Shown in pieces: positions 36,565 through 42,212 of a stretch of 42,212 bases of DNA. How positions within the stretch are numbered: position 1 is the stretch's first letter; every line of letters starts with the position of its first letter. Under the pieces are notes generated by a model. The model was not told the DNA's origin. It was given only the letters and a program-made list of their open reading frames with translations, and did no database searches. Origin of the DNA: Tolypothrix carrinoi HA7290-LM1 (GTDB lineage Bacteria > Cyanobacteriota > Cyanobacteriia > Cyanobacteriales > Nostocaceae); NCBI GenBank assembly GCA_019358935.1, contig JAHHIK010000070.1, positions 1 through 42,212 of the forward strand, in the 5' to 3' direction. Both the position numbers and the translations under genes were made by a program.

Positions 36565-37098
36565 ATGATGAACAATTGGCTACCTTTGAATCCCAGGTTG
36601 CAAAAACTCCGTTCGCGGCTGCTTAACGATCCCTATTATCGACTACAATCTGGGGAAGAGATTGCGATCGCTGCACAATTGGGTATCCGGATTGATGCGA
36701 ATCAAGCAACTGTAGATGATTGGTTGCGTTTACCGGGTTTATCGATTCATCAAGCGCGATCGCTTGTGGAACTTTCGCGTGTTGGTGTGAAATTTTACTG
36801 TATTGAAGATATTGCGGCTGCTTTGAGTATACCAGCGCAACGACTAGAACCATTAAAGCTGATTCTAGATTTTAGTTATTATGACGACGAAGCTTTAGGC
36901 AATCCTACGCAAATTAATATTAATACGGCAACGGTTGAGAATCTAGTAAAAATTCCTTTTATAAATGCGTCTTTGGCTGAAGCAATAGTAGAGAATCGTT
37001 TATCAAAGGGACATTATCGCAACTTAATAGATTTTCAGCAGAGGTTGAATATATCTGGTGAGGCGATCGCGCAATTAATGTATTATCTCAGGTTTTAA
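36565..37098 (+). CDS. ComEA-like helix-hairpin-helix DNA-binding protein
   Basis: IDANQATVDDWLRLPGLS and ININTATVENLVKIPFI HhH repeats. Confidence 0.85.
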   Translation: MMNNWLPLNPRLQKLRSRLLNDPYYRLQSGEEIAIAAQLGIRIDANQATVDDWLRLPGLSIHQARSLVELSRVGVKFYCIEDIAAALSIPAQRLEPLKLILDFSYYDDEALGNPTQININTATVENLVKIPFINASLAEAIVENRLSKGHYRNLIDFQQRLNISGEAIAQLMYYLRF

Positions 37099-37196
37099 AG
37101 TCACGACAAACGTAACTTTAAGCTTGTAGTAACCACTAAAGTGGTTATCTTGAGCACTCTTCGTGCTCACTACGAGTATATAATAACTATCCCTAT

Positions 37197-37427
37197 CGAG
37201 TTCCAAACACGAAACTTCGAGTTCCAAACACGAAACTTCAGCTTCAGAAGGTGAAACTTCGAGTTCCAAACACGAAACTTCAGCTTCAGAAGGTGAAACT
37301 TCGAGTTCCGAACACGAAACTTCAGCTTCAGAAGGTGAAACTTCGAGTTCCAAACACGAAACTTCAGCTTCAGAAGGTGAAACTTCGAGTTCCGAACACG
37401 AAACTTCAGCTTCAGAAGGTGAAACTT
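37197..37427. repeat. Hierarchical tandem array of eleven 21-bp units
   Basis: A=CGAGTTCC(A/G)AACACGAAACTT, B=CAGCTTCAGAAGGTGAAACTT; order A A B A B A' B A B A' B. Confidence 0.97.
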
Positions 37428-37449
37428 GCAAATTTCACCTTTGTAGTAG

Positions 37450-38478
37450 CTACCCCAGCCACTGTGGATTCTTAGCTGTACCGTCAAAGCGATCGCTAAT
37501 CTTGAATAATTCGTACTCACCTTTTGCAGCAACGGTCGCCGTTTTCTTTAGCAAAGCTGCGGTTTGTTCTTGACTCATCGGCTTAAATGTGCGTGCTGCC
37601 TCAAACGCTTGGTTGAGAATTTGCATACTGTCAATGCCTGTAATTACAGTTGAAGTTGGCAGGTTCATTGCGTAATGAAGGCACTCAATAGGCTTAACTG
37701 TATTACTCTTAAGAATAATTTGATCGCCCATTGATTTCATACCCAGGACACCGATTTGATTTTGTACCAATTTGGGTAAAACTGCACGCTCAAAACTGCG
37801 AAAATGGGCATCCATAACATTAAGTGGCAGCTGCACTGTGTCGAAACGGAAGTTATTTTGAGCGGCAATTTCTAGCATTCTCAGGTGAACCAAGGGATCT
37901 TTGTGTCCGGTAAAGCCAATGTAACGAACTTTACCTGCTTTTTGCGCTTCTAGCACTGCTTCTGCTGCACCACCTTTAGCAAAAATCCGGTCTGGGTCTT
38001 CTAAACGGATAATTTCATGAAATTGGATTAAATCGACACGATCTGTTTGTAGACGTTTCAGAGACTCGTCAATTTGCTTGGCAGCAGATTCTTTTGTGCG
38101 ACCATCAATTTTGGTCATGAGAAAGACTTTTTGGCGGTAGCCGTCTTGTAACGCCTTACCCATGCGAATTTCGCTACCACCGTTATGGTAATCCCAGCAG
38201 TTATCCATGAAATTAATTCCACGGTCGATCGCACTGCGGATAATTTTAATGCTTTCTTGCTCGTCTTTTTGCCGTCCGATATGATGACCACCCAAACCGA
38301 TGACAGAGACTTTCTCTTTTGTGCGTCCCATTGTGCGGTAGATCATATCACCGCTTCTAGTTGTCTGTTGCGGTGTTGCCGCTAAAAGTGGATTGAGAAA
38401 ACCTTCAGAAGCTGCTAGTCCCGCAGCCAAACCGGAAATCGAAGCTGTCTTCAGGAAATCTCGTCTGTTGATATCCAC
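37450..38478 (-). CDS. Aldo/keto reductase with a twin-arginine signal peptide
   Basis: NRRDFLK Tat motif; GINFMDNCWDYHNGGSE, LMTK, SLKRLQTDRVDLIQFH, GKVRYIG. Confidence 0.9.
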   Translation of the reverse strand: MDINRRDFLKTASISGLAAGLAASEGFLNPLLAATPQQTTRSGDMIYRTMGRTKEKVSVIGLGGHHIGRQKDEQESIKIIRSAIDRGINFMDNCWDYHNGGSEIRMGKALQDGYRQKVFLMTKIDGRTKESAAKQIDESLKRLQTDRVDLIQFHEIIRLEDPDRIFAKGGAAEAVLEAQKAGKVRYIGFTGHKDPLVHLRMLEIAAQNNFRFDTVQLPLNVMDAHFRSFERAVLPKLVQNQIGVLGMKSMGDQIILKSNTVKPIECLHYAMNLPTSTVITGIDSMQILNQAFEAARTFKPMSQEQTAALLKKTATVAAKGEYELFKISDRFDGTAKNPQWLG

Positions 38479-39518: not shown

Positions 39519-41561
39519 ATGAGGTACTGCATCAACCCCTACTGCCGAAACCGCCAAAACCCCGACAACTTAGATAAGTGCCAAGTTTGTGACAATGACT
39601 TGCTCATTAAAGGTCGGTATTGGCTTGTTAAACATCTACGCCCACTTAATACACCCTATTTTGATGTTTTTGAGGCAGATGATCGAAAGACAGCGAAAGT
39701 TTTGAAGGTTCTGAAGACAAACCAGCATCAGAAGTACGTCGAACTTTTTGAACAAGAAGCAAGAATATTGACTAATCTGAGACATCCAGGGATTCCAAAG
39801 GCAGAACCAGAGGGAGACTTTCTCTGGCAGCTTAATAACGATCAAAAGCTACGCTGTTTACTAATGGAGAAAATTGAGGGGCAAAATTTAGAGCAGTGGT
39901 TGCAGCAAAATCAGCGAATTTATCAAGATTATCAAGCACTTGATTGGCTGATAAAAATCACAAATATTTTGGATTATGTGCATAGCAATCGTTTTTTCCA
40001 TCGGGATATTAAGCCATCCAATATCATGTTGAAACCTGATGGACAACTCGTGTTGATTGATTTTGGCACAGCTAGGGAACTCACCGAGACAGTGATTAAT
40101 GGGCGGGATGTCACGGAAGTTTGTTCACATGGCTACACTGCACCAGAACAAATCGAAGGCAAAGCTGTTCCGCAATCAGATTTCTTTGCTTTAGGACGTA
40201 CATTTGTCCATCTACTAACTGGTAGACATCCTGATAGGTTTTCTCAGAACCGTCAAACAAAGCAGTTGATTTGGCGAGAAGATGCGGCAAATATATCACC
40301 TTTAATAGCAAATTTTATTGATGAACTGATGGCTCCATTAGTTAACAAACGACCCCGTAATGCAGAAATTATCTTGCAACGTCTAGAGCAAATTGGTCAC
40401 TCATTGCATCTGGCAGATGACCGAACTGAGCCGCCGTCACCTCCTCGCCGTTATTGGTCGGTTATTACCTTTGGGTTTTTCATCATCCTATTAGTAACTG
40501 TGTCGATAGGGTGGCGGAGATTTTTTGAACAGTCGCCTACAGCCGACCTCACCCCACCTTGTAGTTCACCTGCCTTAGATGTGAGTGAGATGGCTTTCAG
40601 CCCTAATGGCAACTATCTAGTCACAGCAAGTTTGGACAACACAATACGAGTGTTAAAAGCAAGCAGTGACAACAAGCAAGTCGCGTGCGAAAAAAAACAT
40701 GATAATGGCGTAGTAGCCGTCAAATTAAGTCCAGATGAGGGAAAAATTATCGCTACAGCCAGTTTGGATGGCAAAGCAGGCTTGTGGAATATGAATACCG
40801 ACGGTAGCATCAGCCTGTTACAATTTTTGGAGCACGAAAAAAGTCCCGTAGTCGCTCTCTCCTTTAGCCCCTATGGTAACTATCTAGCTACAGCTACAGC
40901 AGGTGGCAGCGTAAGAGTGTGGGATACAAAAACTTTTCAAGAAATGAAGCTCATACCATACAACGAATACGTCAGGGCTATTAGCTTCAGTCACGATGAA
41001 AATTATCTAGCTATAGTCGGCTTGACAAACAAAGTACATCTGTGGGAGTGGCAAGCCGATAAACCTATGGTTATACTACCCAATGAGGTAGTATCCCTTG
41101 CCTTCAGTCCAACAGATGGCAAGTATCTAGCCACAACTGATGCTAAAGGCAATGCACAAGTAAGGGACATAACTACTTTCAACGTTGTCAAAACTGTAAA
41201 TCTCAAAACTTATCCAACAACTTTCAACTTTAGTCCAGAAGGAAAAGATTTGGTCTTTATCGGTGGGGATAAAAAAGCAAAGTTGTGGAAGTGGGAAAAG
41301 TCCGACACAACTATACCCCTGGAACACAAGCCAAACAATAAGGTAGTAGTAGTTGCCTTCAGTCCAAAAGATGGGAAATATATAGCCACAGCTAGTGCTA
41401 ACGGCATTGTAACAGTGTGGAATAACAATGGTACTAAGATTATGGACTTGCCAAACACAAACAAAAACAATAGTTTAGTGGCACTGGCATTTAGTCCAAC
41501 AGACGAGAGGCAGTTGGCAGTAGCTAGTGCCGACGGTAGCGTACAGATAAGAAAGTGGTAA
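39519..41561 (+). CDS. Ser/Thr protein kinase with a 4-Cys prefix, a TM helix and C-terminal WD40 repeats
   Basis: YCINPYC..CQVC, VLKVL, HRDIKPSN, DFG, GYTAPEQ, hydrophobic helix, repeated AFSPxGxYLATAS. Confidence 0.93.
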   Translation: MRYCINPYCRNRQNPDNLDKCQVCDNDLLIKGRYWLVKHLRPLNTPYFDVFEADDRKTAKVLKVLKTNQHQKYVELFEQEARILTNLRHPGIPKAEPEGDFLWQLNNDQKLRCLLMEKIEGQNLEQWLQQNQRIYQDYQALDWLIKITNILDYVHSNRFFHRDIKPSNIMLKPDGQLVLIDFGTARELTETVINGRDVTEVCSHGYTAPEQIEGKAVPQSDFFALGRTFVHLLTGRHPDRFSQNRQTKQLIWREDAANISPLIANFIDELMAPLVNKRPRNAEIILQRLEQIGHSLHLADDRTEPPSPPRRYWSVITFGFFIILLVTVSIGWRRFFEQSPTADLTPPCSSPALDVSEMAFSPNGNYLVTASLDNTIRVLKASSDNKQVACEKKHDNGVVAVKLSPDEGKIIATASLDGKAGLWNMNTDGSISLLQFLEHEKSPVVALSFSPYGNYLATATAGGSVRVWDTKTFQEMKLIPYNEYVRAISFSHDENYLAIVGLTNKVHLWEWQADKPMVILPNEVVSLAFSPTDGKYLATTDAKGNAQVRDITTFNVVKTVNLKTYPTTFNFSPEGKDLVFIGGDKKAKLWKWEKSDTTIPLEHKPNNKVVVVAFSPKDGKYIATASANGIVTVWNNNGTKIMDLPNTNKNNSLVALAFSPTDERQLAVASADGSVQIRKW

Positions 41562-42091
41562 ACTACCCACACTGAACTTGCGTTACAGTGTGGGCTTTTA
41601 GTAGCCCTGAAGAGTCCATGATGAGCGAGCAGCATAAACCATTCGAGCCTCTGGGCTGGTTTACAAAAACAGCCCCAATAGCAGCAATATTTTTTGCTCC
41701 GTTCAAATCGGCATCCCCACACCATCCACAAGTTTCATTTGCACACTTGAAGCGTTTGTTGGATCGTAGTCCAATATGCAAGCAGCAGTGGCAAGTTTGA
41801 CTGGTATATGCAGGAGGTACAGCGATTACCTCAATACCTGCTTGAATCCCTTTGTAATCCAAAAAAGAACGCAATTGATAGAAAGACCAAGAATTAGAAC
41901 GCCTACGTTCAGTCTTGTTCCTTGGTTGCTGATTAGTTCTTTCCCGAATACCAGTTAAATTTTCAATTGCCACTGTTGCGTTATTAGACAACGCATCCTG
42001 AATAATAGATTTGCTGATGTTATGGTTTAGCCATTGTTGAAAACGCTTCTCCTTCCCCGACAGCCGTTTCAAAATCTGTCTCGCACGACGG
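41558..42091 (-). mobile_element. Right part of an IS200/IS605-family element, including the right end
   Basis: Subterminal hairpin CCCACACTG-N11-CAGTGTGGG (41566-41594), followed on the minus strand by TAGTTTAC; carries the tnpB 3' half. Confidence 0.85.
41563..42091 (-). CDS. tnpB: RNA-guided endonuclease TnpB, 3' exon
   Basis: RRARQILKRLSGKEKRFQQWLNHNISK, VAIENL (RuvC-II Glu), WSFYQLR, PAYTSQTCHCC...FKCANETC zinc finger, DADLNGAKNI (RuvC-III Asp). Confidence 0.93.
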
Positions 42092-42212
42092 GTAGGGTCG
42101 AGGTGTGCATTACTGCAACACCCCTCCCATTCGGAACCGTGCTTGCAATTTTCATCGCACACGGCTACTCAATGTGTTGTCCATTTGTCAAAAGCGGACT
42201 TCCTGACGGCAT
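42092..42212 (-). ncRNA. Group II intron 3' end (domains V and VI); the rest lies outside the window
   Basis: Minus strand 42167-42134 reads TAGCCGTGTGCGATGAAAATTGCAAGCACGGTTC: a 34-nt DV with AGC triad, GAAA loop and 2-nt bulge. A DVI hairpin follows and ends ...CGACCCTAC (AY terminus). Confidence 0.92.

Follow-up and report, generated by a model that had tools for sequence, protein, structure and literature searches.

Group II introns nested in tnpB genes are known from cyanobacteria. Kapitonov et al. (2016; PMC4810608, Supplementary Figure S9) show introns encoding a reverse transcriptase (RT) with an HNH domain in tnpB of IS605-1_CC and IS605B-1_CC from Coleofasciculus chthonoplastes PCC 7420, refer, with data not shown, to "many other examples" in which the tnpB position differs, and suggest an intron in tnpB as the origin of the HNH domain of IscB/Cas9. 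Mohr et al. (2010; PMC2882425) describe F4 introns of the TeI3 family in Thermosynechococcus elongatus, which proliferate by homing to a conserved site in ISEL1, an IS200/IS605-type element of the IS200 family. Non-class-C introns are enriched in transposases and other mobile DNA, where they are said to be "hiding" (Waldern et al., 2020; PMC7306698), and a further report has introns adjoining, not inside, an IS605 element (PMC7923331). Here, we analyze a stretch of 42,212 nucleotides (nt) (the window), which is the entire contig JAHHIK010000070.1 (C70) of the Tolypothrix carrinoi HA7290-LM1 assembly (G000; 7.96 Mb, 184 contigs, each at least 10 kb). Near its end, the 3' part of a group II intron is joined, in sense orientation, to the 3' half of a tnpB gene, in agreement with the preliminary description of this DNA. 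We assign a probability of roughly 0.85 to the reading that a group IIB retro-intron, present in several copies and mobile until recently, has retrohomed into tnpB of a TnpA-less element of the IS605 superfamily of insertion sequences (IS).

The intron end matches the full-length Rfam model RF00029 at positions 42092-42169 of the minus strand with 48.5 bits (cut-off 40), the sole Rfam match within the window. The hallmarks of group II introns, domain V with the catalytic triad and domain VI with a bulged A, are both present, and the two domains form a stable fold (z -4.38; none of 200 shuffles equally stable). The 34-nt domain V that had been proposed at 42167-42134 on the letters alone, with an Rfam search as the check, is thereby confirmed. 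The bulged A at 42098 is also the one named before, with the correction that it lies 8 nt, not 7 nt, from the intron end. A branch A at a distance of 8 nt is typical of group IIB introns.

Relatives of the intron were gathered with a degenerate pattern of domains V and VI from genome contigs (85 stretches, of which 80 were fetched, giving 82 matches and 78 after four duplicates were dropped) and from metagenomes (31 stretches, 24 kept after seven duplicates were dropped), 102 contexts in total; the hosts named for the genome contigs belong to the filamentous cyanobacteria (Nostoc, Stigonema and kin). The base at 42091 is C, fixed in 101 of the 102 copies, and the base after it is variable (A37/C27/T25/G12); hence this C is the last base of the intron and not a part of the exon. 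The boundary given in the preliminary description (intron ending at 42092, exon starting at 42091) has to be shifted by one base: the last intron base is 42091, TnpB resumes at 42090 (RRARQ), and a splice at 42092/42091 would break the frame, which is kept at the true junction, 42091/42090. When 21 complete relatives are spliced at the former boundary, no host open reading frame (ORF) with at least 60 amino acids (aa) on both sides is restored; one base later, four are (dnaB, tnpB, a DinB-type gene, and an unnamed ORF), with relative L071 yielding a 523-aa TnpB ORF; two bases later, two are. The window intron ends in ACC and not in the AY expected of group II introns. Among the 102 lineage 3' ends, ACCCTACC is seen in 70, ACCCTAAC in 23, ACCCTATC in eight, and another ending in one; the non-AY end with its fixed terminal C is a trait of the lineage, not a defect.

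The tnpB 3' exon contains no stops, matches guided_TnpB (NF040570) with 135 bits over model positions 254-387 as well as PF07282, and retains, as was claimed before, the RuvC-II Glu, the zinc finger with its four Cys, and the RuvC-III Asp. When the N-half of an intact TnpB homolog was used as a protein query, two public proteins were identified, P0001 and P0005, which are 232-aa TnpB N-halves carrying the RuvC-I Asp (motif GVDFG) and ending in KGTRSTR followed by VRFVQSKPN and a stop. They are the only ones running into an intron tail out of 84 proteins with the KGTRSTR motif among the 120 matches listed. All 25 complete relatives (about 2.55-2.77 kb) begin with GTGCG, which is also implied by the VRFVQSKP tail of the two proteins; because 13 of these 25 read VRFVQSKP in frame 0 from their intron 5' end, the 5' junction lies between codons (phase 0). 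Two further schemes, a phase-2 insertion with the C at +1 as intron-binding site (IBS) 3 and a frameshifted splice in L071, were rejected on account of this phase-0 junction and the splice test of the relatives. On the 398-aa homolog L012, P0001 and P0005 correspond to residues 1-223 and the window exon to residues 224-398, with neither gap nor overlap. Judging from this alignment, a 398-aa TnpB collinear with the homolog would result from splicing, and since the half with the RuvC-I Asp directly abuts the window exon, a full TnpB would require it. The earlier suggestion that TnpB production would depend on splicing is supported to this extent; such dependence would be a simple consequence of the insertion, as in any gene with such an intron. 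The corrected 5' junction pattern gave no match in 401 genomes of the order (27 from the family).

Table 1. Positions of the intron, tnpB, and neighboring features (window coordinates unless a contig is named).
Feature	Position	Strand	Details
Group II (probably IIB) intron 3' end (tail of domain IV, then domains V and VI)	42091..42212	-	Cut off by the contig end
Domain V	42134..42167	-	34 nt; AGC triad, GAAA loop, AA bulge
Domain VI	42091..42128	-	Bulged A at 42098 as branch point, 8 nt from 3' end; intron end ACCCTACC
Last codons of the RT/maturase/HNH ORF (AVRKSAFDKWTTH, then stop)	42169..42212	-	Alignment to relatives
tnpB 3' exon	41563..42090	-	175 aa; residues 224-398 of intact homolog L012 (82% identity)
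RuvC-II Glu (AIENL)	41964-41962	-	Kept in tnpB 3' exon
RuvC-III Asp (DADLN)	41709-41707	-	Kept in tnpB 3' exon
Region of likely omega-RNA scaffold and IS right end	41558..41700	-	Subterminal hairpin, fold z -4.47; end ...GGTAGTTTAC at 41558
Predicted guide, 3' flank of right end	41540..41557	-	By analogy with IS605 biology
Ser/Thr kinase-WD40 gene	39519..41561	+	IS inserted in its last codons; IS end provides TAA stop
Second-family intron ends (other contigs)	C27:42-120, C123:23135-23213, C146:16758-16836, C151:264-342		5' halves C85:37137, C166:12032

The same intron occurs in several places. Contig C125 starts with an identical intron end (121 of 121 nt), followed by tnpB at the same codon; this exon is stop-free, keeps the catalytic residues, and is 61% alike to the window tnpB in protein and 70% in DNA. 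The Logan contigs of X1, which may be the source sample, contain a third tnpB-joined copy (40 differences in 316 nt, about 87% alike in DNA) and a fourth 3' flank, which is the flank of L150, where the intron (125 of 125 bases identical) lies antisense in an unrelated gene. The 1698-nt intron unitig of X1 has a depth of 2435 against 493-517 for the flanks (about 4.7-4.9-fold), unitig depth being a rough guide only. An empty allele of the L150 gene, found in 3 of the 11 genus members, agrees with the tnpB site of intron-less homologs in 14 of the 18 bases preceding the insertion point; in G000, 26 of 15.9 million positions reach this level. Identical introns, divergent hosts (70-87% alike in DNA, the window tnpB exon being at single-copy depth), and one shared target point to independent retrohoming and argue against spread as IS cargo. 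Thus, of the two routes envisaged in the preliminary description, retrohoming into other tnpB copies is borne out by the identical ends in the C125 and X1 tnpBs, whereas hitch-hiking on the IS is not supported. The 3' intron-tnpB junction was not found in 388 other genomes of the family, the only matches among 389 being the two copies in G000, nor in metagenome contigs. The gene hosting the L150 copy encodes a protein of roughly 670 aa of unknown kind and is necessarily disrupted (L150:126-917; L161-L163).

A relative with a complete intron-encoded protein (IEP), L023, is 95% alike to the window over the last 116 nt. The IEP of a relative shows the RVT_N, RVT_1, GIIM, and HNH domains and a TIGR04416 match of 318.9 bits, and its best match in the PDB is 6ME0 (E 2e-89), presumably the TeI4h protein of T. 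elongatus. Pairing between exon-binding site (EBS) 1 and IBS1 is at least 5/6 in 15 of 22 relatives, compared with 18% of mismatched combinations, and EBS2 pairing holds likewise; the score is the best of a short window and is inflated for true and mismatched pairs alike. An EBS1 fitting the window site was found in none of the 24 complete relatives with the anchor. A plasmid search returned short matches to domains V and VI only, in nine records. Some relatives are more complex: L024, L025, L026, L027, and L031 (G031) are twintrons, with a second RT-encoding intron inside the lineage ORF and several of them within tnpB, and L028 has two intron copies in tandem.

Taken together with established group II intron biology, these data suggest the following course of events. 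An intron of about 2.7 kb, as in the relatives, encoding an RT-maturase-HNH protein, would recognize by EBS/IBS pairing a target of about 18 nt (GGCACAAGRTCTACTCGC-like) that codes for GTRSTR, where the Arg-rich bridge helix ends. Its RNA would enter the sense strand by reverse splicing, after codon 223 and before codon 224, to be followed by HNH cleavage and reverse transcription into DNA. Splicing in the cell would be assisted by the IEP and proceed via the branch A. Unspliced RNA would give a dead 232-aa N-half without two of the three RuvC motifs, and precise splicing the full 398-aa TnpB. As a landing pad, tnpB may be favorable in that it is dispensable and itself mobile and occurs as dozens of paralogs whose coding motifs are conserved.

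Several observations weigh against this scheme. The intron lineage is no tnpB specialist: a sense tnpB abuts the intron in 8 of the 102 contexts by hidden Markov model, each at a different site and four of them in one genome (seven confirmed by Pfam among 51 contexts with an open frame), while the others have dnaB, RHS, Uma2, DinB-type, glutathione S-transferase (GST), or hydrolase genes, or nothing recognizable; the tnpB site of the window is shared by none of the 102. The IEP tail in the window, comprising the last 14 codons, is 1 nt longer than in the relatives, which alters the last eight codons; the relatives, whose IEP ORFs end in ...VRKS(D)xTNGQH(T/I)E, vary there too. P0001 and P0005 are tied to the window copy by sequence only. 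Finally, the intron body, EBS loops, IEP, and 5' exon of the window copy were not found in the G000 assembly, none of whose contig ends carries its tnpB N-half and none of whose 18 intron starts begins with VRFVQSKP. Two candidates for the missing 5' end were rejected: the head of C148 reads VRFVLEKT, and the tail of C24 reads VRFVQSK and a stop and pairs with another intron in an ATPase gene.

The strongest alternative, which we consider plausible if on balance doubtful, is compatible with retrohoming as to origin and differs in the outcome: the intron homed correctly, yet splices poorly or never in the cell and inactivates tnpB, so that the pair is decaying. The four intron-less tnpBs of the window subfamily in G000, which diverge from the intron target, are all broken by frameshifts, stops, or insertions; the intron-bearing tnpBs of C84 and C31 have frameshifts or stops in their exons, and the shifted IEP tail fits as well. 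On the other hand, the window and C125 exons are stop-free with their catalytic residues, the N-halves of P0001 and P0005 are intact, and so are domains V and VI; copies that are 100% identical indicate recent mobility and hence splicing.

The host element itself bears on a second alternative. The IS right end of the window recurs in seven other G000 copies (including C148, C159, C25, C34, C24, and C125) and in four relatives (L012-L014, L020). In four intron-less homologs, TCAC precedes the left end, and tnpB starts about 200 nt behind it, leaving no room for tnpA; TCAC also directly precedes the window flank in an IS-free allele from run X4, a single contig at depth 2.8. By this sequence comparison, the target-adjacent motif is probably TCAC, and the element appears to be a TnpA-less member of the IS605 superfamily. 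This fits the features of IS200/IS605 elements, i.e., a subterminal hairpin right end, a tetranucleotide target 5' of the left end, and no duplication: the right end is seen in the window itself at 41558, and the target in the four homologs and the IS-free allele. G000 has 67 tnpB and seven Y1 tnpA matches. Right-end-only relics of the IS are found at C148:12993-13173 (-; 181 nt, 100% identical to window positions 41558-41738) and at C159:133-318 (+; 85% alike), and each could yield an omega-RNA with another guide. The tnpBs of C25 and C34 share a 45-nt in-frame insert after LSGR (..QRVGRLCRLEATAVR..), probably a short dispersed repeat.

It would be conceivable that the intron spreads mainly as IS cargo, through TnpA transposition or TnpB-driven restorative homing, or that splicing is a selected switch on TnpB. 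The IS looks recent, given its IS-free allele in X4, and its right end is intact; the seven Y1 transposases could act in trans; and Kapitonov et al. (PMC4810608) could not exclude composite transposition for the two identical copies they discuss. However, identical intron ends sit in three tnpBs that are 70-87% alike in DNA, the window exon is single-copy with its junction confined to G000 in the family genomes and the metagenome scan, and one intron copy lies outside any IS, which together make this explanation very unlikely. An assembly artefact, in which repeat collapse joined the intron end to an unrelated tnpB, is hardly credible and largely refuted: the contig does stop 122 nt into the repeat, and the Logan record crossing the junction has only 24-25 intron letters, but the join sits precisely between two codons, keeps the register of intact homologs, is seen again in another tnpB, agrees with the target of the copy outside tnpB, and is mirrored by the 5' halves in independent protein records.

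For annotation, it follows that the GTG-started 199-aa ORF at 41563-42162 is false, being a chimera of intron sequence and tnpB, as the preliminary description had stated, and that split tnpBs are worth checking for introns. On the other side of the IS, the kinase-WD40 protein is unchanged by the insertion, as the IS-free allele has TGA at the same place; the 3' end of this gene was not found in the 10 congeners searched, which leaves the single X4 contig as the basis of the IS-free allele. Further upstream, at 37075-37532, a tandem repeat with a unit of about 42 nt lies between two genes, with repetitive ORFs on both strands (..SPSEAEVSC(S/L)ELEV..).

Group II introns of other lineages show a similar relation to tnpB. 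In G000, 9 of 23 RF00029 matches are directly followed by a sense tnpB (five lineages, five sites), compared with 4 of 1500 random positions (about 0.3%). In five congeners, this holds for 4 of 72 intron ends, and one more match starts at codon 20; the congener set comprises 74 matches fetched of 87, less two at contig ends, with six look-alike matches of G001 excluded. As kin and copies are not independent, these counts are descriptive only; they quantify the "data not shown" statement of Kapitonov et al. (PMC4810608). A second family has five identical ends; four lie in tnpBs that differ from one another, always at the ..DLNVxG-M site directly behind the RuvC-II Glu (Table 1). Identical intron ends followed by ..ENAALNIL at C65:48405-48481 (-) and C93:27-103 (+) split, by eye, the RuvC-III Asp codon of a tnpB, and are too short to score. 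Group II introns at C180:8554-8630 (-), L195, L217, and L218 precede, also by eye, iscB/isrB-like sequence. One tnpB (C84:1-3300 (-) and C66:48055-48246 (-)) is apparently interrupted by two group II introns of different kinds, one following ...YEDI and the other ...STKTC; its middle exon is frameshifted, and this tnpB is itself nested in another RT ORF. A bolder proposal, which we hold to be very improbable, is that the conserved coding motifs of tnpB form a shared landing network for many unrelated group II intron lineages of filamentous cyanobacteria (at least five, at five sites, in one genome) combined with a selected splicing brake on TnpB. In that case, given that the insertions are in frame and in sense orientation, the level of splicing would set the amount of active TnpB and thereby the restorative homing of the IS, so that a retroelement would restrain an RNA-guided nuclease.

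With the same intron present in three divergent tnpBs and in one unrelated gene, a natural test system is at hand. Our literature searches found no measured case of splicing-dependent TnpB resulting from a group II insertion, and a demonstration of spliced mRNA and active TnpB would raise the significance of the locus.

The nesting itself is a habit already described in cyanobacteria, and the window adds one more clean case to that reported in 2016 (Kapitonov et al., 2016; PMC4810608). As in the examples figured there, the host is a cyanobacterium, near-identical intron copies occupy one site in tnpBs only about 60% alike, the intron has the orientation of tnpB, and integration appears independent and site-specific. 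The intron and the site differ (near residue 50 in their case, after residue 223 at the end of the bridge helix here), and the host IS appears TnpA-less in the window; both cases are known from sequence. The F4 introns share the homing to a conserved site in an IS200/IS605-type element; unlike the present intron, they are ORF-less, and the account of them in Mohr et al. (PMC2882425) leaves unstated whether their site lies in tnpB. The enrichment found by Waldern et al. reflects the same general habit, the main text of that study containing no mention of IS200/IS605 (PMC7306698). IStrons, which combine a group I intron with IS605 or IS607, similarly bring a self-splicing intron and tnpB together at one locus; however, as described in PMC10690162 and PMC13565253, the intron ends there are the IS ends, with tnpB inside the intron. 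An IStron was rejected for the window, where RF00029 is the only Rfam match, the intron ends 533 nt inward of the IS right end, and the same intron also occurs outside any IS. In contrast to IStrons, what lies inside tnpB here is a group II retroelement that has ends and targets of its own and also moves without the IS.

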